Source: an uncultured Candidatus Saccharibacteria bacterium
Lineage (GTDB): Bacteria; Patescibacteriota; Saccharimonadia; Saccharimonadales; UBA10212
Reading direction: 5' to 3'
Assembly (NCBI GenBank): GCA_964483315.1
Contig: CAZAAL010000002.1
Span: 72,689 to 136,688 of the forward strand
DNA length: 64,000 nt
The notes beneath the pieces are model-generated. The model did no database searches. It was not told where the DNA came from and was given only the letters and a program-made list of their open reading frames with translations. A program made the position numbers and the translations under genes. This document shows, one piece after another, positions 6,768 to 64,000 of this stretch; within the stretch, counting starts at the first letter, position 1, and each line of letters starts with the position of its first letter.

Positions 6768-6898
6768 AGTATCAAGAGTGTGGCGAGAGTTCTAGCTTAA
6801 TGACCCACCACCAACCCATTTAGTTGGGTGGTACACCTAGCCCGCAAAGGGAAGGATAATTGTACAAAATCCTTTCCACGCGCAGTAAGGATATTTTT
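6768..6898 (+). promoter_or_regulatory. Diverged SAM-I (S-box)-like riboswitch leader, paralogue of the metK leader
   Basis: Shares these blocks with the metK leader at 15582-15757: TATAATTA (6744), GTTAACAATTTAA, TATCAAGAGTG, CCCGCAAAGGGAAGGAT, ATCCTTTCC and AAGGAT-Tn-ATGTCAAAA. The central P2/P3 segment is different. Confidence 0.5.
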
Positions 6899-15580: not shown

Positions 15581-15607
15581 GTATAATTAGTTTTGTTAAC
15601 AATTTAA

Positions 15608-15750
15608 TTTATCAAGAGTGCAACCAAGGGAACGAGCCCGACTTAAGTTGCCAGCAACCAGCCATAATCGGCCCGGTGCTAAATCTCGCCCGCAAAGGGA
15701 AAGATGAGCTAAGTTTCATATCCTTTCCTTGAGCGACGACGAAAGGATTT
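15608..15750 (+). promoter_or_regulatory. SAM-I (S-box) riboswitch with SD-sequestering expression platform
   Basis: TTTATCAAGAGTGCAACCAAGGGAACGAGCCCGA...GTTGCCAGCAACC...GGTGCTAAATCTCGCCCGCAAAGGGAAAGATGAG matches the SAM-I consensus blocks. ATCCTTTCC can pair either with GGGAAAGAT or with GAAAGGAT at the SD. It lies directly upstream of metK. Confidence 0.85.
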
Positions 15751-19873: not shown

Positions 19874-20113
19874 GTGGCAAATGACGAAAAACAGCAACAA
19901 ATTAATTTCGGGATTGATCCGAACATTGTTAAAACCTTATATGTTGATTCCTATCTAATTAGCAACAATCAACACGTAGTAACCTTTAGTTTTGCTCAGG
20001 CTTTACCTGATCCGACCCAGCACAACATTGTTGCAAGAGTTTCGATGACTAAAGCCCAAGCTAAGGAGTTTTTATCAACCCTAAATGAGCATATTGAGAA
20101 GTTTGAGGTATAA
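19874..20113 (+). CDS. Small protein, DUF3467-like (tentative)
   Basis: 79 aa. The pattern YVDSYLIS...VVTFSFAQ...VARVSMTKAQAKEFLSTLNEHIEKFE resembles that family. GTG start. Confidence 0.4.
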   Translation: MANDEKQQQINFGIDPNIVKTLYVDSYLISNNQHVVTFSFAQALPDPTQHNIVARVSMTKAQAKEFLSTLNEHIEKFEV

Positions 20114-20115
20114 AA

Positions 20116-20142
20116 TTAGCACTCTCACTTGACGAGTGCCAA
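20116..20142. promoter_or_regulatory. CIRCE-type inverted repeat (HrcA operator) overlapping the clpC promoter
   Basis: TTAGCACTC-N9-GAGTGCCAA versus consensus TTAGCACTC-N9-GAGTGCTAA. TTGACG (20129-20134) plus an 18-bp spacer plus TACAAT (20153-20158). ATG 7 nt later. Confidence 0.75.
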
Positions 20143-20165
20143 CATAGTGATTTACAATAAAATGT

Positions 20166-38473: not shown

Positions 38474-38920
38474 ATGAAGGTTTACTTTGCCGGTTCGATA
38501 AGGGGTGGTAGAAACGATCAACCAATTTATAACGAACTCATTGAGCATATTAAAAGTCGTGGAGTTGATGTGCTTTGCGAACACGTCGGGTACAAAGAAT
38601 TAACCGATCAAGGTCAAAACCAAGATCCAAAATTCATTCATGACAGAGATATAGGCTGGATCGACGAAGTATCTGCCGTAATCGCAAAGGTTACAAACCC
38701 AAGTCTCGGCGTAGGTTACGAAATTAGGTATGCAATTGATGGCTATAAACCAGTGCTAGCTTTATTTGCTGGCCAATCCGATAAAAAGTTATCAGCAATG
38801 ATAGAAGGCTCGAGAGCACAGGTTTTCGAGTATGAAAGAACTGCTGGGGGATTAGTTCTTGCTAAAACCGCCATTACCGAATTTTTACACAACTGTGAAT
38901 ACAAAGATTTGAGAAATTAG
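38474..38920 (+). CDS. 2'-deoxynucleoside 5'-phosphate N-hydrolase (DNPH1/Rcl-like, nucleoside 2-deoxyribosyltransferase fold)
   Basis: MKVYFAGSIRGGRNDQPIYNELIEHIKSRG...LCEHV parallels DNPH1 YFCGSIRGGREDRTLY...LTEHV. Confidence 0.7.
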   Translation: MKVYFAGSIRGGRNDQPIYNELIEHIKSRGVDVLCEHVGYKELTDQGQNQDPKFIHDRDIGWIDEVSAVIAKVTNPSLGVGYEIRYAIDGYKPVLALFAGQSDKKLSAMIEGSRAQVFEYERTAGGLVLAKTAITEFLHNCEYKDLRN

Positions 38921-38943
38921 CACTCTAGCTTGACGAGTGCCAA
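38917..38943. promoter_or_regulatory. CIRCE-type inverted repeat (HrcA operator) overlapping the clpP promoter
   Basis: TTAGCACTC-N9-GAGTGCCAA. TTGACG (38930-38935) plus an 18-bp spacer plus TAAAAT (38954-38959). ATG 6 nt later. The left arm overlaps the stop codon of the upstream gene. Confidence 0.75.
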
Positions 38944-38965
38944 TTGTTTGTTCTAAAATAATTAC

Positions 38966-39562
38966 ATGAATGATAATTCTTCAATTTTAGTTCCAACCGT
39001 AATCGAACAAGAGGGTCGCTATGAGCGTGCATTCGATATTTATAGTCGCCTATTACGTGACAGGGTTATATTTTTAGGTGATCAGGTTAATGAACACACT
39101 GCCAATTTAGTTGTAGCCCAGATGTTGTTCCTAGAAAACCAAGATGATAAAAAGGATATAATTTTTTATATAAACAGCCCGGGCGGTAGCGTAAGCGACG
39201 GCTTGGCCATTTACGACACGATGCAATACGTCAAATGTGATGTTCAAACAGTTGGCATAGGCCTGCAAGCGTCAATGGGAGCCTTTTTACTGAGTTCCGG
39301 AACTAAAGGCAAACGTACAATCCTACCAAATAGTCGTGTAATGATTCATCAGGTCAGTTCTGGTACACAGGGTCGGGTTTCAGATATGGAAATTGACCTA
39401 AAAGAATCGATAAGACTAAAAAACCTATTAAACGAAATCTTATCTAAGAATACCGGCCAGCCACTTAAAAAGATTCAAGCTGATGTAGAACGTGATTTTT
39501 GGATGACAGCCGAAGAAGCTAAAAAATATGGCGTAGTCGACAAAATAATCAATAAAAAATAA
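38966..39562 (+). CDS. clpP: ATP-dependent Clp protease proteolytic subunit
   Basis: [60 protein letters not shown]. Confidence 0.93.
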
Positions 39563-51030: not shown

Positions 51031-51471
51031 ATGCCAGATCAAAGCCTTGAACACGGGGTGAGGAATATCCCGATAGGTTTAGAGTTGTTAAATGTTCTAG
51101 CAAACCGTAGATCAGCCTTAAAGAATGTCGAAAATGTATCCAAATGGGTACCAAATTCAATGACTGAATATGAAATCAAAGTATTTAGTCAGCGCGTACG
51201 AGCTGATTTTGCATATAGCCCAAATTCACCAGACCATTTAATTGTTCTAAACGAAAGTTTGGCAGACGTTAAAGCTCAAAAAGTAGTCCGAAACCTCGGT
51301 TCTATTTGTATCAGAGTGGGTGACTTTACTACCGCAGATTCATGCTTAAGGACACTAGACGGCATGGACTTAACCTTAACGCCTGCCTTTGGGGTGTATT
51401 TTGCAAGTTTAATCAGTCAAAAAGCTAGAGTTGAGTTGTTAAGGCGTGAGTTAGAAAGTTCTTTAAGATAG
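51031..51471 (+). CDS. Hypothetical protein (146 aa) coupled to fusA
   Basis: The ATG lies 2 nt after the fusA stop. No motif recognised. Confidence 0.55.
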   Translation: MPDQSLEHGVRNIPIGLELLNVLANRRSALKNVENVSKWVPNSMTEYEIKVFSQRVRADFAYSPNSPDHLIVLNESLADVKAQKVVRNLGSICIRVGDFTTADSCLRTLDGMDLTLTPAFGVYFASLISQKARVELLRRELESSLR

Positions 51472-51487
51472 GTATACTATAAATGTT

Positions 51488-51775
51488 ATGTCAGTAGAGC
51501 AAAATATCAATCCATTTATGCAAAGAGTTTCTATGGGCATCATTAATGAGGAACCCTTAATCAACGGATTAGTTCATCTTGTTCCAGAAGTATGCCGACC
51601 AACCTTTACAAGCGAGATATCTGGCAAGCCAATGATTGGTTGCTTAAAGATGACTGCAATTATCGGTAAAACAGCACTTGAGGTCGATACTGGATTGTAT
51701 TCACCTGAAGAGGCTCTAAGAGTCACAAAAAAACTCAATACTTGTGACAAGTGCCCGCTAAAAACCTTCGAGTAG
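51488..51775 (+). CDS. Hypothetical protein (95 aa)
   Basis: Clean ORF in the same orientation. C-terminal CDKC pair. Confidence 0.5.
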   Translation: MSVEQNINPFMQRVSMGIINEEPLINGLVHLVPEVCRPTFTSEISGKPMIGCLKMTAIIGKTALEVDTGLYSPEEALRVTKKLNTCDKCPLKTFE

Positions 51776-51798
51776 TAAACTGATATAATATCCACAAA

Positions 51799-52713
51799 AT
51801 GAGCAATCAAGCCGAGGTCGAAAAAATAGCCCATGTGTTTCCGGGTCAAGGTAGCCAATATGTTGGAATGGGAAAAGAATTATTTAAAAAATATGATTCT
51901 GCTAGAACGGTTTTTGCTACAGCAGAGGACGTGCTTGGTGTGCCTGTTAAAAAATGGTGTTTTGAAGGGCCCCAAGATTTACAAAACGATACACGCATAA
52001 CCCAACCAGCAATTTTTGTTACTAGTATTGCGCACTATATGGCACTTATGGATCACGGCTTTGAGCCAGATATTGTTGCTGGGCATAGCTTAGGGGAATA
52101 TTCAGCGTTAGTTGCTTCTGGAACAACATCATTTGAAGATGGGTTAAGATTAGTTGATTCTAGAGCCAAATTCATGGCTGAGGCTGGCCAGAAAAACCCA
52201 GGTGCAATGGCTGCGGTTCAAAATATAGCAATTGATAGCTTGACTCGAATTTGTAGGTCTACTGGTGCCTACATTGCAAACTACAATACGCCTAAACAAA
52301 CTGTAATTTCTGGTGCTAAAAATGCAATTTCGGCAACCGTTGAGTACGTACAGTTAAATCAAAATCTTAAGGCTGTAGCAAAGCGCCTACCAATAAGCAT
52401 TGCGGCCCATTCACCCCTTATGCAAGATGCATCAGATAAGTTAAAGACGGTAGTTGCTAAAACAAATATGCGAATCCCATCTATAAATATAATCTCTAAT
52501 TCAACAGCAGAGCTTTTTGCCGGTCCGGACGATATTCGTCAAAGCCTTCCAGATCAGCTCACAAAAGGTGTTCTTTGGTGGCAGACAATTGAAAAAATGC
52601 TTTCTATGGGGGTGGTTGAAATCAAAGAAGTTGGACCGAAAAATGTTTTGTCAAAAATGATAGGCAGGGCGCTTGCTGGAAGCTCAGTTAAAATTACGGC
52701 CGTAGACACTTAA
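51799..52713 (+). CDS. fabD: Malonyl-CoA:ACP transacylase
   Basis: FPGQGSQYVGMG, active-site GHSLGEYSALVASG, AAHSPLM. Confidence 0.85.
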   Translation: MSNQAEVEKIAHVFPGQGSQYVGMGKELFKKYDSARTVFATAEDVLGVPVKKWCFEGPQDLQNDTRITQPAIFVTSIAHYMALMDHGFEPDIVAGHSLGEYSALVASGTTSFEDGLRLVDSRAKFMAEAGQKNPGAMAAVQNIAIDSLTRICRSTGAYIANYNTPKQTVISGAKNAISATVEYVQLNQNLKAVAKRLPISIAAHSPLMQDASDKLKTVVAKTNMRIPSINIISNSTAELFAGPDDIRQSLPDQLTKGVLWWQTIEKMLSMGVVEIKEVGPKNVLSKMIGRALAGSSVKITAVDT

Positions 52714-52827: not shown

Positions 52828-54009
52828 ATGGCAGATTTCGATCGCTCAAAGCCCCACGTAAACGTTGGTACTATGGGTCACGTTGACCACGGTAAGACCA
52901 GCCTTACTGCGGCTATTACAATGACACTTTCTAAAAAGCTTCCAAGCGAAGTTAACAAGCCGGTTGCTTACGACCAAATCGACAACGCACCTGAAGAGAA
53001 AGCTCGTGGTATAACCATCGCTACTTCTCACCAAGAGTACGAAAGCGAAAAAAGGCACTATGCACACGTTGACATGCCTGGTCACGCCGACTACATCAAG
53101 AACATGATCACCGGTGCTGCTCAAATCGACGGCGCTATCTTGGTTGTATCTGCAGCCGATGGCCCTATGCCTCAAACTCGTGAGCACGTTCTACTTGCTA
53201 AGCAAGTGGGTGTTCCTTCAATCCTAGTATTTATGAACAAGATGGACCTTGCTGACGCCGACCTAGTCGAGCTAGTCGAAGAGGACATCCGTGACCTACT
53301 AGCAAAATACGAGTTTGATCGAGACTGCCCAATCGTTAAGGGTTCTGCTACTAAAGCTATCGAAGGCGACGAAGAGTCAATGAACGCAATCATGGAGCTT
53401 GTAAAAGCTATGGATGATTACATCCCAGAGCCAAAGCGCGATCTAGACAAGCCATTCCTAATGCCTGTTGAGGATGTTTTCTCAATCAAGGGTCGTGGTA
53501 CTGTTGCAACCGGTCGTGTTGAACAAGGTATCGTAAAAGTTAACGAAGAAGTCGAAATCTCAGGTATTCGTCCAACAACTAAAAGCGTTGTAACTGGTGT
53601 TGAGATGTTCAAAAAGAACCTAGATCAAGGTCAAGCTGGCGACAACGTTGGTATCTTGCTGAGAGGTATCGAGCGCGATGATATCGAGCGTGGTCAAGTT
53701 TTAGCAAAACCAGGCAGTATTACTCCTCACACCGAGTTTGACGCCGAGGTTTATATCTTAACAAAAGAAGAAGGTGGTCGACACACTCCATTCTTTAAGG
53801 GCTACAAGCCACAATTCTACTTCCGAACAACCGACGTAACTGGCGAAGTCGAGCTACCAGCCGACAAAGAAATGGTTATGCCTGGTGATACAGTTACCTT
53901 TAAAGTTAAGCTTCTTGCACCAATTGCTATGGATCAAGGTCTTCGCTTCGCTATCCGCGAAGGTGGCCGAACCGTAGGTGCAGGTGTTGTTACCAAGATC
54001 AATAAGTAA
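52828..54009 (+). CDS. tuf: Elongation factor Tu
   Basis: [47 protein letters not shown], full length 393 aa. Confidence 0.97.
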
Positions 54010-54011
54010 AG

Positions 54012-54317
54012 ATGACTAAAGCAAGAGTAGAACTAGGCGAAGTAGTAGCTACCGATAAGGGCGCTATTCTAAGGCCTGTGACCGAAGCTAACTTTAGGAT
54101 CTCAGGAGTTTTATCAGTAGATTCAGATTCAAGCAATGTCGTTTTTAGTTGGCTGGAAGGGTCTCAAAATGATTTGATAGCTCAACGCGCTATCGTATGT
54201 GAGTCTCACAAGGTTGCATATACAACTGTTGAAGAGGACGAGCTTGCAAAGCAAGCCCTAGTCTCAGTTTTAAGACCACTTGTTAATGCATCATATGATG
54301 AATTGGTTGGGGTATAA
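54012..54317 (+). CDS. Hypothetical protein (101 aa) wedged between tuf and rpsJ
   Basis: The ATG lies 2 nt after the tuf stop. Its stop lies 1 nt before the rpsJ ATG. Confidence 0.55.
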
Positions 54318-54318
54318 A

Positions 54319-54687
54319 ATGGCTGAAGATAAGAAAACTCCAACACCAAAAGCCGGCGCACAAGCACCGGTTGAGGCTCCTCTAAAGCAGAGGATTCGCA
54401 TTAGGCTAAAAGCCTATGACCACAAAGTCATAGATCAATCGGCTAAGCAAATTGTTGATACTGCTTTAAGAACTGGCGCAAACATTGCTGGGCCAATCCC
54501 TTTGCCAACTCGAAAAAGTACATTTACAGTTGTAAAAAGCCCGCATGTTTACAAAAAAGGTCGCGAGCAGTTTGAAATGCGCGTTCACAAACGCTTAATT
54601 GATATTACCGAGCCAACACCTAAGACGATTGATAGTCTTATGAACCTAAGCCTACCGGCTGGGTGTGATGCCGAAATAAAAATGTAA
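54319..54687 (+). CDS. rpsJ: 30S ribosomal protein S10
   Basis: [26 protein letters not shown]...GPIPLPT...[28 protein letters not shown]. Start chosen at MAEDKK; the track start at 54280 overlaps the upstream ORF. Confidence 0.93.
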
Positions 54688-54690
54688 AAA

Positions 54691-54712
54691 AGCGCCGAAA
54701 GGCGCTTTTTTT
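54691..54712 (+). terminator. Rho-independent terminator after rpsJ
   Basis: AGCGCC-GAAA-GGCGCT followed by T7. Confidence 0.85.
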
Positions 54713-54902
54713 ATAAGCTTCCAGCTTAACCGGCCAACTTTGTACCGACAAAGTTGGACAAAACTCCCAGCACAGAACTCAAAAACCATATTTAATTTAT
54801 TTCATTCACAATAAGTGAATCTGCGGAGCTCACTATCGTTCAAGCAAGTCCTCGATTCTGCTTATTGCTCATTCATAAATTAATCTGTTTCCCGAGAGTG
54901 CT
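54692..54902 (+). repeat. Direct repeat copy A (terminator plus hairpin element E2)
   Basis: Near-identical to 55402-55636, apart from one substitution, a 24-bp indel and a diverged last ~12 bp. Confidence 0.9.
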
Positions 54903-54976
54903 GGATAAGATGTCTATTGACAAACAGGTCGATTAGGAGTATAATATTGTATTAAATTAACGGGGGAGGCTTGATT

Positions 54977-55396
54977 ATGGCGTTCGATCAAACTGAATGC
55001 ATGTATCGCGTGTCGGCAAAGGCACTTATTAAAAACTCACAAGGTGAGTTATTTTTTGTAGATGAAAACGAAGGGCACGGACTAAATTTACCGGGTGGTG
55101 GTATCGATAATGGCGAAACACCCCAAGACACTTTAAAACGTGAAATTCACGAAGAGGTTGGCCTTGATGTCATATCCGTAGCAGATCATCCAAGGTTTGC
55201 ATGGCTAATTAACAGTGAAGTCGTATGGTTAGTTTACGAAACAGAAGTTTCTGACACGGCCGAAGCTAAGACTACACATCATGTTGCAGGGTTTGAATGG
55301 GCAAAGCCAGGCTCAGAAGATATAAAAAGCAAATGGGGTTATGTATCTAAGCTTTTCATGCAAGATTTAATCGATTATGTTAAAATCAATAGTTAA
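54977..55396 (+). CDS. NUDIX hydrolase
   Basis: Perfect Nudix box GGIDNGETPQDTLKREIHEEVGL (Gx5Ex7REUxEExGU). SD GGGGGAGG 7 nt upstream. Own GGAGTATAAT promoter. Confidence 0.85.
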   Translation: MAFDQTECMYRVSAKALIKNSQGELFFVDENEGHGLNLPGGGIDNGETPQDTLKREIHEEVGLDVISVADHPRFAWLINSEVVWLVYETEVSDTAEAKTTHHVAGFEWAKPGSEDIKSKWGYVSKLFMQDLIDYVKINS

Positions 55397-55400
55397 TTAA

Positions 55401-55422
55401 GGCGCCGAAAGGCGCTTTTTTT
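55401..55422 (+). terminator. Rho-independent terminator after the NUDIX gene (duplicate of the rpsJ terminator)
   Basis: GGCGCC-GAAA-GGCGCT followed by T7. Confidence 0.85.
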
Positions 55423-55636
55423 ATAAGCTTTCAGCTTAACCGGCCAAATTGTCTTACGCAGACGGCGCCAACTTTGTACCGACAAAGTTGGACAAAACTC
55501 CCAGCACAGAACTCAAAAACCATATTTAATTTATTTCATTCACAATAAGTGAATCTGCGGAGCTCACTATCGTTCAAGCAAGTCCTCGATTCTGCTTATT
55601 GCTCATTCATAAATTAATCTGTTTTTGATAGTGCTT
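55402..55636 (+). repeat. Direct repeat copy B (terminator plus hairpin element E2)
   Basis: See copy A. It carries an extra ATTGTCTTACGCAGACGGCGCCAA after CCGGCCAA. Confidence 0.9.
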
Positions 55637-55760
55637 TTGTAGTCTGAATTGGTATGTATTCAGAGTCTGAATCAGATACTACTTTTACAGAAAAGAATAC
55701 AACATTAATTATTTTTTATAGAAGATGTATACTAAAGTAAATATTAAGTGAGGTAAAATT

Positions 55761-56009
55761 TTGAAAAGGGAAAACGCTTTCCCTGAATGGATAGAGGGAG
55801 ACAAGGGCTTAACCTTATTTTTAGGTATAGCTTGTGTTGTAGCGATAACTATTATTTTGAATGCAGTCTATGTTGCTCATAAAAACAAAAAAAATGTAGA
55901 TTGGGGCGATGTTATTATATCGGCCTGGGACAGTCTAGGGATAACCGTCATACTTTGCATAATTGTAACTATGCTTATATTTGGGATAAAATATTTTATA
56001 TATAACTAG
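55761..56009 (+). CDS. Hypothetical small 2-TM membrane protein (TTG start)
   Basis: SD GTGAGGT ~7 nt upstream. Two hydrophobic helices. Confidence 0.4.
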   Translation: MKRENAFPEWIEGDKGLTLFLGIACVVAITIILNAVYVAHKNKKNVDWGDVIISAWDSLGITVILCIIVTMLIFGIKYFIYN

Positions 56010-56028
56010 TTAGTAGTCTTGCGAAACT

Positions 56029-56106
56029 GGTTTCACTCAAACAGCCCTCGCCCTAGAAGTTGTTTTGTTGGCGTGAAACCCTTATGAATAAGCCGATGCC
56101 CAGATC
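56029..56106. repeat. Shortened copy (E3) of the hairpin element family
   Basis: GGTTTCAC...GTGAAACC outer stem. CAAACAGCC-CTCG-..AGTTGTTTTG aligns to E1 with the core deleted. Tail CCGATGCCCAGA (56093-56104). Confidence 0.4.
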
Positions 56107-56131
56107 AGAACTTATCAGGAAGTTTGAAACC

Positions 56132-56923
56132 CTAATTAAATTCACGTTTCAATACTGCCAGTACATCGCCAAATGTTTCTCTAATATTACCTGTAGCGAA
56201 TTGGACATAAGTGATTCCTTGAATATTTGAAGGGATTTTTGTATCCTTCTCAATCAAAACTATTGCCTTAGAAAAGCCTAATTTTCCTTGGAATAACCCC
56301 ATTTCGTGTATAACGTTTTGTCTAGCTAGTAAACTACCGTCCTCGAGTTTATCCTCCCCGGTCATTACTAAAATTGCAAAGGATGCACCTTGAACCATTC
56401 TTTCTAGAACATCCCTGACAGCATGCCCTGTCCTTGAACCTACTTCATACGCATCGATTTTATAATTATGCTGGTCAGCAAGATGATCTTTTAATTTCCT
56501 CCACTGTTCGTTTTGGCCATGACCAATAAAAATAGTTGGTGGTTCAACGGGGGGTGTATTTTCTTTATAAATAGAACTCTTCTTAGCTTGCTCAAAAATC
56601 TCAAAAACCTCTTCAATTGTTTGCCTTTGCGGGGCCCCAATACCAATTTCGGAAGTATTACCTCTAAAATTTAGCTCTAAAGAGCCCTTGCCGTGACTAA
56701 AACTTTTACTAAAATGGGCAAACTTACAATTTTTCCTATAGTCAGAAAAAAACTCCGTATCATTATCGTGTTGCCAGGAATTATTATCTTGTATGTCAAT
56801 CGTAAGATAACTTGAAGTATTTTTTTTATGTTCCCGAGGAAGTTTTTTAACTAGTGTTTTTTCAGCTAAAGCTATAGTCTCAGGATTAAACTTTGTGGTT
56901 AAATAGATCCTTGTATTTTTCAT
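56132..56923 (-). CDS. TIR-like domain protein of the CAP12/PycTIR type (COG4271-like) with an uncharacterised ~125-aa N-terminal domain
   Basis: The C-terminal half carries the family signature: TIFIGHGQNEQW, SFAILVMTGED, ARQNVIHEMGLFQGKLG, PSNIQGITYV. Own GGAGTATACT promoter. Confidence 0.75.
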   Translation of the reverse strand: MKNTRIYLTTKFNPETIALAEKTLVKKLPREHKKNTSSYLTIDIQDNNSWQHDNDTEFFSDYRKNCKFAHFSKSFSHGKGSLELNFRGNTSEIGIGAPQRQTIEEVFEIFEQAKKSSIYKENTPPVEPPTIFIGHGQNEQWRKLKDHLADQHNYKIDAYEVGSRTGHAVRDVLERMVQGASFAILVMTGEDKLEDGSLLARQNVIHEMGLFQGKLGFSKAIVLIEKDTKIPSNIQGITYVQFATGNIRETFGDVLAVLKREFN

Positions 56924-56985
56924 AAACTCATTCTTTAACTTCAGTATACTCCTTCAGAGGGAATAAAAAAATGGAGCTTTTCGTG

Positions 56986-57219
56986 CTAGGTTCGGTTGGG
57001 GTTGAGGAAGTTGGATAAAACTTCTTCTGGGTCTAGGCCGGCTTGAGTTAGGTAGCTAAAGGCAGTTTCAAAAGCATCATCAAAAGGCATGCGGGCAATT
57101 TCATCGCATGTTTCAGGGTCAAACCCAAGCTCTTCGCCAACAGATCTTAACTCATCAGCGATTTTCTGGCTTTCGGTTTTAGCCTCTGGTCCTTGTTCGA
57201 TGTGAAGATGATCTTCCAT
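56986..57219 (-). CDS. Hypothetical acidic protein (77 aa), leaderless unit
   Basis: ATG at 57219 lies 6 nt downstream of TATAAT (rc of 57226-57231). The track TTG start at 57225 abuts the -10 box. Confidence 0.45.
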   Translation of the reverse strand: MEDHLHIEQGPEAKTESQKIADELRSVGEELGFDPETCDEIARMPFDDAFETAFSYLTQAGLDPEEVLSNFLNPNRT

Positions 57220-57265
57220 ACACAAATTATACGCTTTTTGAGCAAATCCTACATTTTGTAGTGTT

Positions 57266-57559
57266 TTAGGGTGCGTCGGGTTGGTTTAAGGCGTTTGGCG
57301 GGAGTCCATAATCCAGTGGTAGTCCATTTTTGGCATTTAATTCGATTCTAGCTATTGTAGCAATTGGTCCATCTGCACTCGGTACACCAGAAACAGGGCT
57401 TGGGCGGTCATTAAGTGGCCTAAATGAAAGTGTGTCTAGATGCCAATCTGGATTAGTCTTTCGAGGGAAAATTGCCCTAACTAACCCTTTAATCGAGATT
57501 CTGTTAGATGGGTCATGAGACTTTGATGCCTCAGGCTCAAAATCAAACATTTCACTCAT
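57266..57559 (-). CDS. Hypothetical Pro-rich protein (97 aa), leaderless unit
   Basis: ATG 6 nt downstream of TATAAT (rc of 57566-57571). Confidence 0.45.
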   Translation of the reverse strand: MSEMFDFEPEASKSHDPSNRISIKGLVRAIFPRKTNPDWHLDTLSFRPLNDRPSPVSGVPSADGPIATIARIELNAKNGLPLDYGLPPNALNQPDAP

Positions 57560-57588
57560 AAATTTATTATACGCCCTGGTGGATTGAT

Positions 57589-58032
57589 TTAGGAAGTTGG
57601 GGTTGAGTCCAGCTCTTGCGCGACTCTTTCTTCAAATGCTTTTTGATCATACGGTATGGGTCTATCAAATAAGTAGGCTCTAGTTGATGACGGATACACG
57701 GCGTTGCCTATATAGACCCATGGCTGTTCGTGATTGTCACTTGGCATGGTCACGTCGTTTAAAATTGATCCGTTGTTTGTGAAATCGTTGTTTTTTAAAT
57801 GCCAATATACGACCCTTTTTGGTGAATTGGGCATACTAAAGGTCATTTCTGGTTCGTTACCGAGCAAAAATAGTGGGAAAGGCCACTTATCATAGTTTGG
57901 GCCGTCGGCATATTCTTCCCAATCCACAAAGCCAGCAATGCTAATTTTGCCAAGATCAAGTATGGTTTTTTTGTATTCAGGACCTAAGTCTAAAAACACT
58001 TCGGTCGGTAATTGATAATCTATTTCACGCAT
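57589..58032 (-). CDS. Hypothetical protein (147 aa), leaderless unit
   Basis: ATG at 58032 lies 6 nt downstream of TATAAT (rc of 58039-58044). Confidence 0.5.
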   Translation of the reverse strand: MREIDYQLPTEVFLDLGPEYKKTILDLGKISIAGFVDWEEYADGPNYDKWPFPLFLLGNEPEMTFSMPNSPKRVVYWHLKNNDFTNNGSILNDVTMPSDNHEQPWVYIGNAVYPSSTRAYLFDRPIPYDQKAFEERVAQELDSTPTS

Positions 58033-58101
58033 ATCCAAATTATATCCTTACCTAATCCAACTGCATATTGCTTGTGTATTATTTGATGTCGGGGTATTTG
58101 T

Positions 58102-58602
58102 TTATGCTCGGTTCAATGGTGACAGCTCTAGCTTGCCAGCTTTGCCTAAAATTTCTGCAATATCTGAAAATTCTAAATATCGTGTGCCATCACCAAAATA
58201 CACTAGTGGAATGTTATCTACTTGGTATCTAAGCATTCTTTCGGACTTTAGGATAAGAGACTCACCAGGATTTATTGGGTATCTCTTAAGTGGCCTTACT
58301 CTTATGTAGTCATAAGCACCTTTGTCAAAAACACTTGCCACTACTGCTTCTTCATCTTCAGGAACGACCACCCTTAGATCTTTGCCATTAGTTGGTGCAA
58401 GAAAAATAGCATTACTTAAACAAAGAGTTGCTTGTCGGTGTTCAGTTTTGCGCATGTCTTGCCGATTTGCACTATCGGAGTTTCGAGAGTTATACCATGA
58501 ATTGATTAAAAATGAAGCTTCATCGACATATCTTTGCAAATTGAGCATTGACTCAGATTTTTCATCCAAACTTTCCTGGCTACCATGACTTCTTTCACTC
58601 AT
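58102..58602 (-). CDS. Hypothetical protein (166 aa), leaderless unit
   Basis: ATG 7 nt downstream of TATAAT (rc of 58610-58615). Confidence 0.5.
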   Translation of the reverse strand: MSERSHGSQESLDEKSESMLNLQRYVDEASFLINSWYNSRNSDSANRQDMRKTEHRQATLCLSNAIFLAPTNGKDLRVVVPEDEEAVVASVFDKGAYDYIRVRPLKRYPINPGESLILKSERMLRYQVDNIPLVYFGDGTRYLEFSDIAEILGKAGKLELSPLNRA

Positions 58603-58660
58603 AGTTTTAATTATATCTTCGTTAACTAATCAACAAAATTGCTTGTGGTATTTTGATATG

Positions 58661-58713
58661 AAAATGCGCCCCATCTCAGGGGCGCTAGGACGGGAGCCAG
58701 ATTGCTCCCGTCC
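58661..58713 (-). terminator. Tandem GC-rich hairpin terminators after the GC-rich membrane-protein gene
   Basis: GGACGGGAGC-N6-GCTCCCGTCC (58688-58713) and GCGCCCC-N6-GGGGCGC (58666-58685), followed on the minus strand by ATTTT. Confidence 0.6.
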
Positions 58714-58726
58714 TTATTGAGGGTTT

Positions 58727-59158
58727 TTACCCCCAGTCTGTCCACTCGAGGATCCACCACCCGATGGCGCAGATGAGTATCCCGGTAATGCCGATGAACT
58801 CCGTCACCATCCATGCAGTCGTGTTAGGCTCTTGGGCCTCATTTGCAGTGAAGCTGAGAGCGAGCATGCTGTTCAATCCGCTCCAGAAGATCGTCATGCC
58901 GATGAAGAACCCCCAGGCTTTAAGGGTGCTCACCGTAGCCACACCTTGCCTGTATTTGACGTGGTAGGTGTTGGACTCCCATTCCAGGGAGTGATACCCG
59001 ACCCGGGTCTCTCTCGGCTGACTATAGCTGTCCCAGCGAGCCTTATAGCGTCGCTTCAGCTTGATGCTGTAGTAGAGCCAGGCGATGAGCGCGAACAGCG
59101 GTGGGAACACCAACGCCACACCCACGACTACAGCGTAAAAGATAGCTACCGTCTGCAT
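58727..59158 (-). CDS. GC-rich 144-aa membrane protein (3-4 TM), foreign composition
   Basis: Start MQTVAIFYAVVVGVALVF with SD AAGGAG 6 nt upstream. ~57% GC in a ~33% GC neighbourhood. The track start at 59215 is unlikely. Confidence 0.6.
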   Translation of the reverse strand: MQTVAIFYAVVVGVALVFPPLFALIAWLYYSIKLKRRYKARWDSYSQPRETRVGYHSLEWESNTYHVKYRQGVATVSTLKAWGFFIGMTIFWSGLNSMLALSFTANEAQEPNTTAWMVTEFIGITGILICAIGWWILEWTDWG

Positions 59159-59280
59159 CTCGACTCCTTTTGTGGTGCATCTTTGACATTGCCAAAAACT
59201 AGAAATATTGTGCACTAAAAAATATAATTTGCAAGCTCAAGCATCTCTTCAGATATAAAAGAATACTCGTTATGGTTTTA

Positions 59281-59820
59281 CTAAAGTGGTTTGGCGTGGT
59301 TGATAAGTTTGTGTCTTATGTCTAGAAAACTTGAAATGTCATCTGAGTCTTTATAGTAAAAGGTTTGAGTTTGCATTTTACCCATATCGTCATAACTATT
59401 TATAGCTACGGTTGTTTCATCAAAAATCATTAAGTCGCCCTTTGGTAATTTAATGTCATCTACATCTAATTTGTTTATTATGTAAACTTTCTCTTTGCAG
59501 AGTGGAATATTTATAACTTTATAATGCTCAAATTCCCACTCAAGATATTTGGTTAATGGATAGTCAACTACGTGTAGTCTGATAAGTTCCACGCCGTTAT
59601 CGCTTAAGCTTTGACACGACTTTATCCAGTCTTTACTGACCAGATCTTTCATTAATTTTCTACTTAATGATTTATCACCTTTAAGCCAAGCATCTAATGA
59701 TGGCCCTGTATCTTCGCCTGAGTAATCTTGGAGAACCTCAAGCTTAAACCACTCACTTTTTAAAGAATCCCAATGTTTTTCAAACTCTTTAAAGCTTTCA
59801 TCTCGACCAAAAACCTTCAT
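59281..59820 (-). CDS. Hypothetical protein (179 aa); vague resemblance to DUF6879-type proteins, unverified
   Basis: ATG 6 nt downstream of TATGCT (rc of 59827-59832). Trp/Glu-rich segments WFKLEVLQDY and YLEWEFEHY. Confidence 0.5.
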   Translation of the reverse strand: MKVFGRDESFKEFEKHWDSLKSEWFKLEVLQDYSGEDTGPSLDAWLKGDKSLSRKLMKDLVSKDWIKSCQSLSDNGVELIRLHVVDYPLTKYLEWEFEHYKVINIPLCKEKVYIINKLDVDDIKLPKGDLMIFDETTVAINSYDDMGKMQTQTFYYKDSDDISSFLDIRHKLINHAKPL

Positions 59821-59872
59821 AACAAAAGCATACTCCTAAAAATGGCGATGTTATTGGGCGATTTGTAAAGTT

Positions 59873-60175
59873 CTAATAACCCAATGTACTTAATTTATCC
59901 GCATTTTCATGTAATAGCGCTGATTTTTTTACAAGTTTACGCCTTTTTAGTTCAGCGGCTACAGTTGCGCTTATAGCAAGCCCGAACCCTGCTATATTAA
60001 ACTGTAGTTGCTCTACTGGTGGCAACGTATTGATGTTATCGGCAAAATTTGCAAGAGCCGTAGCCCCAATAAGTGAAACTCCCACTACATTACGAATATC
60101 GCGGTATCCTTTGGCCTCTTCGCAAGCTTCTTCTGCCTGAAACCTTCTGAATTCTGAAAGCGTTGAATAATCCAT
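59873..60175 (-). CDS. Hypothetical 2-TM protein (100 aa), leaderless unit
   Basis: ATG 8 nt downstream of GGGGTATAAT (rc of 60184-60193). Confidence 0.45.
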   Translation of the reverse strand: MDYSTLSEFRRFQAEEACEEAKGYRDIRNVVGVSLIGATALANFADNINTLPPVEQLQFNIAGFGLAISATVAAELKRRKLVKKSALLHENADKLSTLGY

Positions 60176-60220
60176 TAAGCAAGATTATACCCCCACTAGT
60201 AACAAATATTTAATTTTAGT

Positions 60221-60478
60221 TTATTTTTTTATAGATTTGTAACTAAAAATTAACACTATCATAACGCTTATAAGCCAAGTAAAAGTCGTTAACGCTAAAA
60301 CAAACGGCAGGCCAATAGGTGCACCTACAATACAGTTCGACTCATCAACTTGCGACTGTGAGTAGTTGTCGGGGCATTGTTCGGGCTGGTTTAATAAAAT
60401 AACCAATAATAACAAGTACAAAATTGTTAGGATAAATAATACCAGCTTTGTTTTTGTGCCAAATTTTTTTGCAACCAT
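60221..60478 (-). CDS. Hypothetical small membrane protein (85 aa)
   Basis: Two hydrophobic helices flank a Cys-containing loop. Confidence 0.45.
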   Translation of the reverse strand: MVAKKFGTKTKLVLFILTILYLLLLVILLNQPEQCPDNYSQSQVDESNCIVGAPIGLPFVLALTTFTWLISVMIVLIFSYKSIKK

Positions 60479-60554
60479 TTAGTTATTTTAGCAGGAATAA
60501 GTTAGCATTATCTAAATTGATAAAATAATACACTTATGCTATAATATATCTGTA

Positions 60555-61130
60555 ATGAGGCGGAGTTTGCGAGTACATAGCAAATTTTTATTTGCATTGC
60601 TTAGCGGGATAATATTATTTATCCCGGCTTATATTTGGATTCCGGTGTTTGCAGGCGACGCAAGCCAGCCAAAAGTTGCTGGCTACTTTGCAGTTGCACC
60701 ATCTACCGAACTTGCACAAAGCAAAACTAACATCGATTTAAGCGAACTTTTAACCCAAACCAACCAAGAACGAGCTAGTGTGGGCGTTGGACCACTCTCT
60801 CCAGATCAGAACCTTTACTTATCGGCTAACGCTAAGTGTAATGATATGGTTTTAAATCATTATTGGGGTCATTATTCACCTAGTGGCCAAAGTGGGCTTA
60901 GTTTTATTGAGTCAATATATCCAAAGTATGCAAAAATTAGCGAAAATTTAGCTGCTGGGTTCAATAACTCAACAGAAGTTGTGGCCGGTTGGATGCAAAG
61001 TCCAAGCCATAAAAAAGCTCTTCTAGATAGTTCGTACCAATATGTTGGTTTTAGCGTTTGCGAGGGTGATATTGGCGATGGCAATGGTAGTAGCCTAGCT
61101 GTGGTTCAACACTTTATGGCGGTAAGATAA
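60555..61130 (+). CDS. Secreted CAP/SCP (PR-1, YkwD-like) domain protein
   Basis: Signal anchor, then NQERASVGVGPL, HYWGHYSP, ENLAAGF, VAGWMQSPSHKKALL, YVGFSV. Confidence 0.75.
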   Translation: MRRSLRVHSKFLFALLSGIILFIPAYIWIPVFAGDASQPKVAGYFAVAPSTELAQSKTNIDLSELLTQTNQERASVGVGPLSPDQNLYLSANAKCNDMVLNHYWGHYSPSGQSGLSFIESIYPKYAKISENLAAGFNNSTEVVAGWMQSPSHKKALLDSSYQYVGFSVCEGDIGDGNGSSLAVVQHFMAVR

Positions 61131-61342
61131 TGCTAGAAACTAAAGAAAAACAAATTGCCTATGCGCTTCGCGGTAAAGAAATTGCTGAGCTTGAAACTAG
61201 TTTATGGAATAACTTAACGGCAGAACAAAGAACTCTTAGAGCATATTTAAGTTGTCATAAGGTAGCTGTATACTGTGTTGATACAGACGAGGTAGATAAG
61301 GCCGAACAGATATTAAATGATAATCTAACGCTAGAGGGATAA
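61130..61342 (+). CDS. Hypothetical protein (70 aa)
   Basis: TAATG overlap with the upstream CAP gene. Confidence 0.4.
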   Translation: MLETKEKQIAYALRGKEIAELETSLWNNLTAEQRTLRAYLSCHKVAVYCVDTDEVDKAEQILNDNLTLEG

Positions 61343-61349
61343 GTTAATA

Positions 61350-61703
61350 ATGTCGATAGAATCGCACGCAATTAAAGCCAATTTTGCTACTGTAACGAAA
61401 AACTTACGTCGAGCTATTCCAGTAGGCTGTGAGGGGTGTAAAACGCCTAATAAAGTAGCAGAGGAACTTCCGAAAAGGGCCGCAACATTAGGGATCGAAC
61501 TACAATATTTAATTGAACCTTCAGCAGAAGTATTCGGAGAATGTCAGGACGGCCAAATTGAACTTGATTACCCAGAATGCCAAGCTAGATGCTCAAACCC
61601 TAATCTAGACGTCGACAGCCCTGTATTATTAAGTGAACAAATGATTGTAAGAATTTTAGATAAAGCTGATTGGGCACAAAATCACGGTAAAGGAGACATG
61701 TAG
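61350..61703 (+). CDS. Hypothetical Cys-containing protein (117 aa)
   Basis: CEGC, ECQDG and ECQARC motifs. Tightly packed with its neighbours. Confidence 0.45.
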   Translation: MSIESHAIKANFATVTKNLRRAIPVGCEGCKTPNKVAEELPKRAATLGIELQYLIEPSAEVFGECQDGQIELDYPECQARCSNPNLDVDSPVLLSEQMIVRILDKADWAQNHGKGDM

Positions 61704-62009
61704 ATGGGTCAATTATCGGAACAAGGCAAAATGACAGACGAGATTATGCGTGATGTGCAAGAGCGTTGCAAAGAATGCCCACAAGCACGGCTTACGGCTT
61801 TGTTTATGGCCGAAAAAGTTTTAGCAGGTGAGGTAACACTTGAGCAATGCATAGAAACACACGCCCGAGAAATTGCTGATAATTGTAATGGCGGGAAAAA
61901 ACTGCAAGACGGCAGTACAAAGTGTATTAAAGGTTTAAAAACTGGTCCTCTGCCGCCACCTCATATAAGGGATGAATTAAACATATGGGAGGATACGACT
62001 TATGCGTAG
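61704..62009 (+). CDS. Hypothetical Cys-containing protein (101 aa)
   Basis: The ATG directly abuts the previous stop. CKEC and other Cys residues. Confidence 0.45.
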   Translation: MGQLSEQGKMTDEIMRDVQERCKECPQARLTALFMAEKVLAGEVTLEQCIETHAREIADNCNGGKKLQDGSTKCIKGLKTGPLPPPHIRDELNIWEDTTYA

Positions 62010-62391
62010 CGGACATGGCTGGAAGTGCGGAAATTTCGAAGACATCCCACCACTTAAAGACGGTTGGACACCTGGTTGGCACTCTGTGCGTCATCACATG
62101 GGCGTCACTGCTTTTGGGATTAATGCCGTAACTGCCCAAAAAGCTGGCGATTTGATTATAAAAGAACATGATGAGTCAGGCTCTAACCAGCAAGAGGTAT
62201 TTTTTGTGCATAGTGGTGAATGTGAATTCATGATTGATGGCGAAAAATGTATTGCCAAGGCTGGTACATTTGTTGCCATTGAGCCCGAATGCAAAAGAAG
62301 CGTGACGGCAATACAGGCTGGGAGCCAGTTAATCGTGATAGGCGCACCCAAAGACAAACAATATCAAGTTCCCAAGTGGGATACGCTTTAA
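62002..62391 (+). CDS. Cupin-domain protein
   Basis: EVFFVHSGECEFMIDGEKCIAKAGTFVAIEP is a cupin beta-barrel motif. 8-nt overlap with the upstream ORF. Confidence 0.6.
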   Translation: MRSGHGWKCGNFEDIPPLKDGWTPGWHSVRHHMGVTAFGINAVTAQKAGDLIIKEHDESGSNQQEVFFVHSGECEFMIDGEKCIAKAGTFVAIEPECKRSVTAIQAGSQLIVIGAPKDKQYQVPKWDTL

Positions 62392-62412
62392 ATATTTGCT
62401 ACAATAACGCTA

Positions 62413-62694
62413 ATGGCTAAAAAAAGGCGGGTTGGCGCCAAGACTACTCAAAAAGCAGAACTGGATAGTGTCTATTTACTAAAATTAGCGATTTATATGG
62501 TTTTAGGCTCGTTTTGGGTAAGAATCAACTTAGACTCGGGATTTGAGCTACCACTGCCAGTTGGTGCACTGATTGGCTTAATTTATGCAAGTCATGATCA
62601 TTTTGCGATAGACAGAAAAATTGAGTACGCCATACTTTTAGTGGCAATGTTTATTGGTTTTTGGCTGCCAATTGGCATGACAATTTCATTGTAG
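62413..62694 (+). CDS. Hypothetical small 3-TM membrane protein (93 aa)
   Basis: A basic N-terminus followed by three hydrophobic helices. Confidence 0.45.
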   Translation: MAKKRRVGAKTTQKAELDSVYLLKLAIYMVLGSFWVRINLDSGFELPLPVGALIGLIYASHDHFAIDRKIEYAILLVAMFIGFWLPIGMTISL

Positions 62695-62707
62695 AATTAT
62701 CAACATA

Positions 62708-62737
62708 TTGACAGATGTCAGCTTAACGTGGTAATCT
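62708..62737 (+). promoter_or_regulatory. Candidate promoter re-starting the S10 operon at rplC
   Basis: TTGACA (62708-62713), an 18-bp spacer, TG-G-TAATCT (62729-62737). A ~140-nt leader contains hairpin AATGCGT/ACGCATT. Confidence 0.4.
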
Positions 62738-62878
62738 GTTATTTGTATTAATTAATTCGGTGTACTTGGATCATCAGTAAGTCGCCATCTAACAGAGGTA
62801 GAAACTGCTTTTGACCAAGCTTTTTTAATGCGTGTCGCCTATCAATACGCATTAATTACCACTAAACAGCGAGGCTCA

Positions 62879-63487
62879 GTGAAAGCTCTATTAACTAGAA
62901 AACTTGGTATGACGACTATCATTAGTGACAACGGCACTGCAAGTGCTGTAACTTTGCTTTCTGCTGATCCAATTGTTGTTACTCAAGTTAAATCTACTGA
63001 TGTTGATGGTTACAACGCGATTCAAGTAGGCGCTGGAGAAGATAAAAAACCATCCAAAAGTCATGCTGGGCATGTCAAAGCTTCGGGCTCTGTTCCAAAA
63101 GTCCTTAAAGAGTTTAGGGTTGACGAACTTGGCGAGTTAAAAGTTGGCGACAAAATTACAGCTGAAAATTTTGAACTTGGTGATAGTGTCCATGTAACAG
63201 CTATATCCAAGGGTAAAGGCTGGGCCGGCACAATTAAACGACATAATTTTCATCGAGGCCGAAAAACCCATGGGGGTCAAAGTTACAGACGCCCTGGCTC
63301 TATCGGTTCGATGTATCCACAGCGTATATTCCCCGGTAAAAAGATGGCCGGCCAAATGGGCTACGAGCAAGTTACAGTCAAAAATCTTAAAATAGCCTTA
63401 ATTGACAACGAACTTAGCGTAATTGGTGTTTTTGGCGCTGTGCCTGGGCCTAAAAAAGGCTTAGTTGTTTTAAAGGGAGCTAAGTAA
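62879..63487 (+). CDS. rplC: 50S ribosomal protein L3
   Basis: GTG start giving VKALLTRKLGMTTI (the canonical L3 N-terminus), with SD GAGGCT upstream. KGKGWAGTIKRHNF. The track start at 62828 adds a non-homologous extension. Confidence 0.9.
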   Translation: MKALLTRKLGMTTIISDNGTASAVTLLSADPIVVTQVKSTDVDGYNAIQVGAGEDKKPSKSHAGHVKASGSVPKVLKEFRVDELGELKVGDKITAENFELGDSVHVTAISKGKGWAGTIKRHNFHRGRKTHGGQSYRRPGSIGSMYPQRIFPGKKMAGQMGYEQVTVKNLKIALIDNELSVIGVFGAVPGPKKGLVVLKGAK

Positions 63488-64000
63488 TGGCCACAGCTAC
63501 CTATACAAAATCAGGAACAAAGTCTACGACTCCCGCCAAGCTAGACGCAAAAGTGTTCGGCGTTGAAGTTAAAGACCATAATCTTATAAAGCAGGCTTAT
63601 ACAACATACTTAGCTAATGGTCGTGAAAACTTTGCCAAAACATTAAAAAGAGGCGAAGTCAGTGGTGGTGGTAAAAAACCATGGCGACAAAAAGGTACTG
63701 GTCGGGCTAGGTTCGGATCTTCAAGGAATCCAATCTGGCGAGGCGGTGGTATCGCTTTTGGCCCAACCGGAAACGAAAACTACTCAAAAAAACTAAATAC
63801 ACAGTCTAAAAAGCTAGCAATCAAGCAAGCTCTTTCGCTTACCAGCGGTAAGGTTATTGTTATCGAATCATTTGATATTAAATCTGCAAAAACCAAAGAT
63901 GCCTTGTCTTTACTTGAAAAAATTGGTGCCAAAGGTAATATTTTACTTGTTATTAGCTCTAAATCGCCAGAAGTCGTAAGAGCAACCAACAATCTTGAGA
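63487..64000 (+). CDS. rplD: 50S ribosomal protein L4 (3' end outside the window)
   Basis: TAATG overlap with rplC. Hand translation gives MATATYTKSG...GGGKKPWRQKGTGRARFGSSRNPIWRGGGIAFGP. The frame is open to the end of the window, so it is absent from the ORF track. Confidence 0.9.
   Translation, partial: MATATYTKSGTKSTTPAKLDAKVFGVEVKDHNLIKQAYTTYLANGRENFAKTLKRGEVSGGGKKPWRQKGTGRARFGSSRNPIWRGGGIAFGPTGNENYSKKLNTQSKKLAIKQALSLTSGKVIVIESFDIKSAKTKDALSLLEKIGAKGNILLVISSKSPEVVRATNNLE

Follow-up and report, generated by a model that had tools for sequence, protein, structure and literature searches.

The stretch of DNA studied here, which we call the window, is a 64,000-nucleotide part of contig CAZAAL010000002.1 from an uncultured Candidatus Saccharibacteria bacterium. 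It carries the genes rpoB, rpoC, rpsL, rpsG, fusA, orf146, fabD, tuf, orf101, rpsJ, rplC and rplD in this order, and our subject is the gene-bearing interval between rpsJ (ribosomal protein S10) and rplC (ribosomal protein L3). The left conserved anchor is tuf (EF-Tu; 52828-54009, plus strand), an open reading frame (ORF) with 84-92% identity to the tuf of relatives. It is followed by orf101, a lineage-specific ORF (54012-54317, plus strand) that lies 2 nt from tuf and 1 nt from rpsJ, and then by rpsJ itself (54319-54687, plus strand; Pfam Ribosomal_S10, 1.2e-35), the last gene of this tuf-orf101-rpsJ unit. The rpsJ start is likely 54319, with the N-terminus MAEDKKTP that is common to relatives. 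On the right, the anchor is rplC (62879-63487, plus strand; Pfam Ribosomal_L3), the first gene of the tight S10/spc block; its start is the GTG at 62879, where the alignment of homologues begins. The gap between rpsJ and rplC measures 8,191 bp and holds 17 ORFs of at least 70 amino acids (aa). An earlier sequence-only reading of this DNA had described the interval as about 8 kb long, correctly, and as holding about 19 genes, a number slightly too high. Directly 3' of the rpsJ stop codon lies a predicted bidirectional intrinsic terminator (54686-54711), a perfect 11-bp stem of the form AAAAAAGCGCC-GAAA-GGCGCTTTTTT with A and T runs on either side, in agreement with the strong terminator proposed there. 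Altogether the window carries the largest load that we measured at this position: a NUDIX cassette, a gene for an 82-aa membrane protein, a block of nine minus-strand genes and a block of five plus-strand genes.

For up to 145 related loci, we measured the gaps between neighboring genes from rpoC to rplE. The 80 best genome matches to the rpsJ of the window are all Saccharibacteria or Saccharimonadales metagenome-assembled genomes. In 119 loci, rpsJ and rplC lie on the same strand and in the same order; the median gap between them is 1210 bp, and it exceeds 300 bp in 87% and 1 kb in 58% of these loci. The interval spans from ~0.1 kb to >10 kb, with the window as the measured maximum and one locus, L066, exceeding 10 kb. 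The junctions to the left are loose as well, if to a lesser degree, with medians of 576 bp for fusA-tuf (73% above 300 bp), 438 bp for tuf-rpsJ (56%) and 333 bp for rpsG-fusA (57%). From rplC-rplD on to rplE the median gap is ~0 (84-145 loci), with 0-12% of the gaps above 300 bp at each of 11 junctions; an apparent 200-bp gap between rplP and rpsQ is rpmC, which was absent from the query set. In distant relatives (L151-L160, with rplC identity of 50% or less), rpsJ and rplC are separated by only -1 to 36 bp, with one exception of 135 bp. Since the large majority of the 119 loci are split while these distant relatives have the two genes adjacent, the split is a trait of the Saccharibacteria clade and not peculiar to the window genome. 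The sequence-only reading had taken the junction to be universally conserved and its disruption to be very unusual, a view that does not survive this comparison; universal conservation should no longer be assumed for rpsJ-rplC.

Downstream of tuf, hairpins resembling terminators were found in 60 of 104 loci, and downstream of rpsJ in 36 of 127. Seven further genes were tested and rarely have one: there are none after five of them, one after rpsC, and 8 in 77 loci after fusA. In cyanobacteria, plastids and archaea, too, rpsJ is known to be grouped with tuf and not with rplC. For the saccharibacterium TM7x, the rpsJ promoter has been used as a stand-alone strong promoter (PMC10633639).

Some loci show further peculiarities at these junctions. 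In L066 (10375-20300), where rplC lies >10 kb from rpsJ, the interval opens with three tandem genes of ~850 aa that have no Pfam domain. In the window, the fusA-tuf and tuf-rpsJ junctions (51031-52713 and 54012-54317) also hold extra genes, namely orf146, fabD and orf101. The assignment of fabD is above cutoff (TIGR00128, 272 bits), and a distant fabD-like match occurs at the same position in L002; the gene is unexpected in a lineage generally thought to be without fatty-acid synthesis. Neither orf146 nor orf101 has a homologue in the other fetched loci, and orf101 has no match in Pfam, NCBIfam or PADLOC, although it is also called as a gene in an independent assembly (L168).

When the regions ahead of rplC were aligned, a conserved motif came to light that we describe as a structured leader RNA of rplC (62762-62829 in the window, plus strand). 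Its predicted fold consists of nested helices P1-P4 followed by a U-run, which is the shape of an attenuator. P1 is CUUGGU/ACCAAG, P2 is variable in sequence, P3 is GGU/ACC, and P4 is CUACC/GGUAG with a loop containing UAACAGAGG. Upstream of the leader, an alignment of rplC upstream sequences (A3) contains further conserved columns, and in the window these belong to a predicted promoter region (62709-62760, plus strand). This region has a TTGACA (at 62709) and a -10-like block that is conserved (TGGTATATC in relatives). The proposal that rplC has a candidate promoter of its own is thus borne out, and transcription would start upstream of the leader.

A covariance model was built from a MAFFT alignment of 43 sequences and used to search 153 sources, ~2 Mb in total, on both strands. 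It gave 115 matches (the window and 114 fetched loci), one per source, all on the plus strand and none elsewhere; the match in the window scores 57.2 bits (E 3e-10) and is the sole match in the 64 kb. The 87 matches of the first search lie 21-277 nt upstream of rplC, with a median of 50 nt, and no match was found in the distant loci L151-L160, where rpsJ abuts rplC. In the MAFFT alignment of the 43 sequences, 84% of the cells in paired columns can pair, compared to at most 48% with slid partners, and in 12 pairs both sides show changes. In the model-based alignment the values are 88.9% and again at most 48%, 14 of the 18 pairs change on both sides, and none of 500 shuffles reaches the observed values. 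At pair 25-111, for example, 67 sequences have GC and 17 have AU, and none is unpaired. RNAalifold predicted no pairs on the first, gap-rich MAFFT alignment; to see the covariation, a length-homogeneous subset and a covariance-model alignment were needed. Rfam 15, searched at E <= 1 over 54000-63600, has no match to the leader and gave just two chance-level matches to small RNAs. In the literature, with subscription journals partly uncovered, we found no earlier description of an rplC leader or an rpsJ-rplC hotspot in Saccharibacteria. We thus regard the RNA upstream of rplC as a well-supported new candidate for a ribosomal-protein leader. By analogy with the S10 leader of Escherichia coli, its ligand is probably L4. 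The RNA may alternatively be merely a terminator or insulator against upstream transcription; we favor the role of a leader because the loop is invariant, the distance to rplC is fixed, and the motif is also present in loci that lack the small membrane protein SMP described below.

Because both the promoter and the covarying leader RNA sit upstream of rplC, the S10 operon of this clade appears to start at rplC. The Escherichia coli S10 leader, through which L4 mediates attenuation and translational repression (PMC3616713), and the L4 leader candidate of Archaeoglobi (PMC7247131) are the closest parallels: here too, a structured 5' leader precedes an L3-L4-L23-L2 operon, and as in E. coli a long hairpin followed by a U-run gives it the shape of an attenuator. 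In contrast to E. coli, the leader of Saccharibacteria lies upstream of rplC rather than rpsJ, and it has no similarity to known leaders in sequence or by covariance model. The position upstream of rplC has precedents, as most cyanobacteria have a conserved RNA structure there (PMC12873609) and the Archaeoglobi candidate occupies the same place (PMC7247131). The leader described here corresponds to no Rfam family.

The gene arrangement has a parallel as well. In cyanobacteria and plastids, the str operon comprises rpsL-rpsG-fusA-tufA-rpsJ, archaea have an equivalent, and a separate operon starts at rplC. Saccharibacteria resemble this arrangement in that rpsJ goes with tuf and rplC opens its own unit behind a structured leader. 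They differ from it in that the two units stay neighbors with a variable slot between them, and in that rpsJ is often parted from tuf, as the median gap of 438 bp shows.

The content of the interval turns over rapidly. The interval proteins of 71 species-level relatives fall into 150 clusters, of which 130 are singletons, and 15 of the 17 interval proteins of the window have no homologue in any other fetched locus. Between pairs of loci with 82-89% DNA identity in rplC, only 0-35% of the interval can be aligned (up to 68% in one pair) and lengths differ several-fold, whereas a species pair at 95% rplC nucleotide identity has an identical interval; these figures describe turnover between species, not between strains. 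The relatives do not carry one and the same conserved gene set at this position, and the suggestion of a hotspot of gene gain and loss is thereby upheld. The description of the whole 8 kb as an accessory island holds for the turnover only, as the SMP gene, the promoter and the leader are conserved and NUDIX and cupin genes recur. In direction, 81% of the interval ORFs point the same way as the ribosomal genes.

The last gene of the interval (62413-62694, plus strand) encodes a 93-aa membrane protein, which we call SMP. The gene is on the plus strand in each of the 35 intervals (of 71) where a hidden Markov model of SMP matches. With tblastn there are 76 matches among the loci, and inserts are found on both sides of the gene; SMP belongs to no Pfam or NCBIfam family. 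Judged by this distribution, SMP is a lineage-conserved resident and not cargo. NUDIX domains occur in 14 of 135 interval proteins of relatives, and one NUDIX family recurs in 10 loci, but the NUDIX protein of the window is only ~28% identical to it. Cupin homologues are found at the same interval in two loci (L089 and L076). SMP, NUDIX and cupin proteins diverge roughly in step with the flanks. The ancestral residents appear to be SMP, next to the rplC leader on its upstream side, and in many cases a NUDIX gene, with the rest being lineage-specific cargo. Among the 135 interval proteins of relatives, Pfam recognizes 44 families, mostly of ordinary enzymes, such as CTP synthase (pyrG), beta-lactamase-fold proteins, HAD hydrolases, adenosine deaminase and glutamate dehydrogenase (gdh). 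None of the 25 Pfam families listed for these proteins is an integrase, transposase or recombinase, and no repeat family was found to be common to cassettes or loci.

Within the window, Pfam supports five interval genes, encoding proteins with NUDIX, CAP12/Pycsar-type TIR, DUF6879, CAP and Cupin_2 domains. In the NUDIX hydrolase (54977-55396, plus strand; Pfam NUDIX, 9.5e-15), the Nudix box is intact (GGGIDNGETPQDTLKREIHEEVGL). Its gene follows a promoter-like TTGACA-17-TATAAT (54917-54945, plus strand), a pattern match with 12 of 12 consensus positions. As proposed by the sequence-only reading, the gene is flanked by direct repeats of about 200 bp: copy A comprises 202 nt (54689-54890, plus strand) and copy B 226 nt (55399-55624, plus strand). 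Copy A contains the terminator, a small hairpin and a 10-bp palindrome (54734-54757), and copy B has a 24-nt insertion relative to A. The two copies share 158 identical nt and another 52 nt at 94% identity, with the 24-nt indel, edged by the short repeat GCCAA, between these parts. Both open with the terminator hairpin directly after a stop codon, that of rpsJ for copy A and that of the NUDIX gene for copy B.

The next gene (55761-56009, plus strand) encodes the 82-aa membrane protein, and is also called in an independent contig (L081). It is followed by the nine minus-strand genes in a row, beginning with a gene for a TIR-domain protein (56132-56923, minus strand), as had been recognized from the sequence. 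This protein combines an N-terminal domain of ~130 aa without a family and a CAP12/Pycsar-type TIR domain (Pfam PF10137, 2.4e-26); it matches the TIR effector and PDC-S35 models of PADLOC at 1e-16 to 1e-17, as well as the phage-derived family phrog_16442 at 6e-32. When aligned to the CAP12 structure 7un8, the motif reads NVIHEMG versus NVVFEFG, and its glutamate, presumably the catalytic residue, is kept. The neighboring genes include no CBASS or Pycsar cyclase, SAVED, STING or Thoeris ThsA partner. The protein thus resembles both the standalone TIR defence candidates (PDC-S35) and the CAP12/PycTIR effectors of CBASS and Pycsar in having the same PF10137-type domain with the motif glutamate. 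It differs in having no cyclase and no SAVED or STING partner or domain, and in its N-terminal ~130 aa without a family.

Of all genes in the interval, only that of the TIR protein is plausibly defensive. PADLOC gives a confident match for this protein alone; its match to NUDIX is weaker (PDC-S07, 2.8e-9), the cupin is matched marginally by TIR effector models (E ~1e-3), and the other 14 interval proteins have no PADLOC match. The interval is not a defence island, and its cargo is a miscellany. With the mostly ordinary enzymes found in relatives, the case for an enrichment in genes for defence or host interaction is weak.

The minus-strand block continues with four small genes of 79, 97, 149 and 166 aa (56986-58602), which have no match in Pfam, PADLOC or PHROGs, and three of which are also called in contig L081. 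They are followed by a GC-rich cassette (58666-59158, minus strand), consisting of an ORFan for a 143-aa membrane protein (58727-59158) and hairpins at its 3' end (58666-58685 and 58687-58714). A search of 5.8 billion proteins with this ORFan returned just itself. The block is completed by a DUF6879 protein (59281-59820, minus strand; Pfam PF21806, 2.2e-30) and by two small genes for a 100-aa protein and an 85-aa membrane protein (59873-60478, minus strand). A 76-bp divergent region, with a promoter-like TTGATA-17-TATAAT with TG extension (60517-60545, plus strand; again a pattern match), separates them from a tightly packed plus-strand block (60555-62391) in which gene ends overlap or abut. 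This block encodes a CAP/YkwD-like protein, a 70-aa ORF, two Cys-rich proteins of 117 and 101 aa and a cupin. The sequence-based calls of a CAP-domain protein and a cupin are both confirmed: the former (60555-61130) has an N-terminal hydrophobic segment and matches Pfam CAP at 2.6e-16 and TIGR02909 (YkwD) at 1.9e-21, and the latter (62002-62391) matches Cupin_2 at 1.6e-7.

The GC content of the interval (39.7%) is close to that of the window (41.3%), and individual genes range from 34 to 46%. The GC-rich ORFan is the sole true outlier in composition, with a GC content of 56% overall and of 76% at third codon positions. The single GC-rich gene of the sequence-only reading was therefore real, while its figure of ~30-35% for the remainder was only roughly right. 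Its hairpin-family elements at cassette borders hold up weakly: the intergenic hairpins comprise the terminator and the 10-bp palindrome, both of them duplicated, and two GC-rich hairpins that are unrelated (58666-58714). As stated in that reading, there is no integrase or transposase; Pfam and PHROGs show neither of these in the window, nor any phage structural or replication domain. No att-like repeats were found in the interval, and the nearest tRNA is at least 35.7 kb away. When the interval was examined as an integron array, no island protein had an integrase domain and no attC-like repeats were present at cassette borders, the sole repeated element being the two-copy direct repeat and the other hairpins being unrelated in sequence. 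Scans of viral contigs for the TIR and DUF6879 proteins were empty.

As the interval was described from a single contig, its contiguity is of some importance. The region from the Cys-rich genes through rplD (61295-63876) is present at 99.4-100% identity in independent assemblies from ~10 runs, which confirms the right junction. Further independent contigs match the window at 100% over 55546-58347 and 53088-54759. In run SRR14271336, one contig extends from tuf through rpsJ and ends 72 nt into repeat A, and a second contig begins inside repeat B and reaches 58347; the left junction is thus supported up to the repeat. Exact-protein look-ups found no record of rpsJ (with two start codons), NUDIX (with two start codons) or the DUF6879 protein. 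At the right-hand side, a contig from SRR20718483 (L167) agrees with the window at 100% identity from the start codon of the cupin gene to the right. Its positions 1-249, compared with window positions 61750-62001, carry a divergent and shorter version of the gene for the 101-aa Cys-rich protein, which shares the motifs NCNGG and PPH(I/L)R. The position of this breakpoint at a gene boundary hints at mosaicism at the strain level.

It might be argued that the window is in part an assembly artefact, with the NUDIX segment looped in between the repeat copies or the contig being chimeric at 54.7 kb. In support of this, the short-read contigs of SRR14271336 break inside both repeat copies, and the NUDIX protein is on record in no independent assembly. 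We nonetheless consider an artefact very unlikely. The repeat copies are not identical but differ by 3 substitutions and the 24-nt indel in their first part, and the independent rpsJ contig is 100% identical to copy A and only 94% to copy B; that it carries the version of copy A argues for a true duplication. In addition, de Bruijn assemblers normally break contigs at repeats, independent contigs confirm the right junction as well as the island interior at 99.4-100% identity, and large intervals are the rule in relatives, including the complete long-read chromosomes L003, L012, L035 and L072. Another reading takes the island for what is left of a mobile element with site specificity for the 3' end of rpsJ, be it a degraded prophage, an integrative element or an integron-like cassette array. 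The ~200-nt repeats around the NUDIX gene begin exactly at the rpsJ stop codon, the TIR protein matches the phage-derived phrog_16442, and one cassette has a foreign composition. Against such an origin, which we regard as the least probable of the explanations weighed here, stands the lack of integrase, transposase and phage structural or replication domains, both in the window and among the Pfam families listed for the 135 proteins of relatives, as well as the lack of a repeat family common to cassettes or loci and of TIR or DUF6879 relatives in viral contigs. The repeats are also far longer than typical att duplications and include the predicted terminator, and the point of insertion varies, with inserts on both sides of the SMP gene.

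A different explanation is that the interval is a fixed, lineage-specific extension of the operon, with vertically inherited residents in a translation-linked role, and that its variation reflects slow divergence and loss. Several of our data agree with this: SMP is present in 35 of 71 intervals, the NUDIX family in 10 loci and cupins in 2 loci, all diverging like the flanks; most interval ORFs (81%) are co-oriented with the ribosomal genes; and the right-hand part of the window interval is identical in ~10 samples. Slow divergence does not, however, fit with the 130 singletons among 150 clusters, with the 15 of 17 window proteins that lack homologues in other fetched loci, or with the replacement of content between species at 82-89% rplC identity. 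Neither the nine genes on the opposite strand, nor the one compositionally foreign gene, nor the predicted strong terminator after rpsJ would be expected of an operon extension, and we thus find this explanation unlikely for the interval as a whole.

We believe instead, with reasonable though not full confidence, that in Saccharibacteria rpsJ lies outside the S10 operon, either on the tuf side or solitary, that the S10 operon starts at rplC, and that the boundary between them is a slot which swaps genes without a dedicated recombinase. As the space between rpsJ and rplC is the boundary between two conserved units, added DNA would cause no polar effects there. Saccharibacteria are known to be naturally competent, with linear DNA being integrated by homologous recombination via arms of ~1 kb (PMC10633639), and from this we infer natural transformation and recombination as the mechanism of the slot, with cargo entering and leaving through the conserved flanks. 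DNA would be taken up by natural transformation and integrated by homologous recombination anchored in the conserved translation genes on either side, with the other end sometimes being joined by an illegitimate or microhomology event where homology is lacking. We see in the NUDIX cassette a probable recent case of such recombination anchored in the flanks. Since copies A and B differ by 3 substitutions and a 24-nt indel, we suggest that one copy may have come in with a donor fragment, or that a circular intermediate may have integrated by a single crossover.

A number of observations weigh against this proposal of a gene-swapping slot. When species are compared, none of the interval genes clearly exceeds rplC in similarity, the top excess being 11.6 points for one NUDIX pair, so that exchange through the flanks is not directly visible among the sampled species. 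Core genes such as pyrG are found in some intervals, and part of the variability may therefore be ordinary rearrangement of gene order and not horizontal capture. Scans of genomes and metagenomes for close relatives gave rplC identities of 70% or less, so that recent gain and loss at the exact window locus cannot be traced, save for the short variant contig L167. The NUDIX segment was not recovered in any independent assembly. Its flanking repeat has no further copies in the window or any fetched locus, and among 115 other loci only two short, unrelated cases of flanking repeats were found; for these reasons the repeat-flanked cassette is a single recent event in the window genome, and not the signature of a general mechanism. 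Lastly, promoters and terminators were called by pattern matching alone, shuffled sequence has promoter-like sites just as often (24 found versus 24.2 expected), and the transcription units of the locus are inferred.

Large-scale work on bacterial pangenomes by Oliveira et al. in 2017 reportedly described hotspots that are flanked by core genes and lack integrases. The slot between rpsJ and rplC is similar to such hotspots: both of its neighbors are persistent core genes, nearly every lineage has a different accessory content, no tRNA, integrase or att site is present, and homologous recombination in the conserved flanks is the presumed route. It differs from known hotspots in that most bacteria have the flanking ribosomal genes side by side and transcribe them together, and in that the slot is kept across a class-level clade and not just within a single species. 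Furthermore, it has conserved residents and is bounded by a dedicated regulatory RNA, and the turnover measured here is that between species and not strains.

Saccharibacteria have tiny genomes with few mobile elements. We tentatively speculate that these bacteria may keep much of their flexible gene pool in a few integrase-free slots between translation genes, with rpsJ-rplC as the main one. Transformation would refill these slots, the conserved genes would act as homology arms, and the attenuator RNA, probably sensing L4, would insulate the ribosomal operon. In most Saccharibacteria, a hypervariable region is enclosed by two genes that are among the most conserved in biology. Primers placed in rpsJ and rplC could be used to type strains and to sample accessory genes straight from communities, and the slot may serve as a neutral site for insertions made with the new genetic tools for these epibionts. 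For binning and phylogenomics of candidate-phyla bacteria, a contiguous ribosomal block is often assumed, whereas here rpsJ is routinely 1-8 kb away and repeats break contigs. The candidate rplC leader adds a structured RNA to a phylum with almost no described cis-regulatory RNAs, and makes the feedback control of ribosomal proteins accessible to tests in organisms whose ribosomes are reduced.

Elsewhere in the window, further elements were found. Two SAM-I riboswitch matches are located at 6766-6862 and 15606-15710, both on the plus strand; one of these, upstream of metK, is at the gathering score with 44.5 bits, while the second, upstream of a 120-aa ORF without a family, is just under it with 41.4 bits. 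A 42-nt tandem duplication with 93% identity is present at 8101-8184. Finally, a 48-nt element containing TTAGCACTC-N9-GAGTGCCAA, which we take to match the consensus of the CIRCE (HrcA) operator, is repeated at 20113-20160 and 38914-38961. CIRCE usually controls groE and dnaK rather than clp genes; in the window, the two copies of the element lie upstream of a ClpC/ClpB-type ATPase gene (20166-22676) and of clpP (38966-39562).

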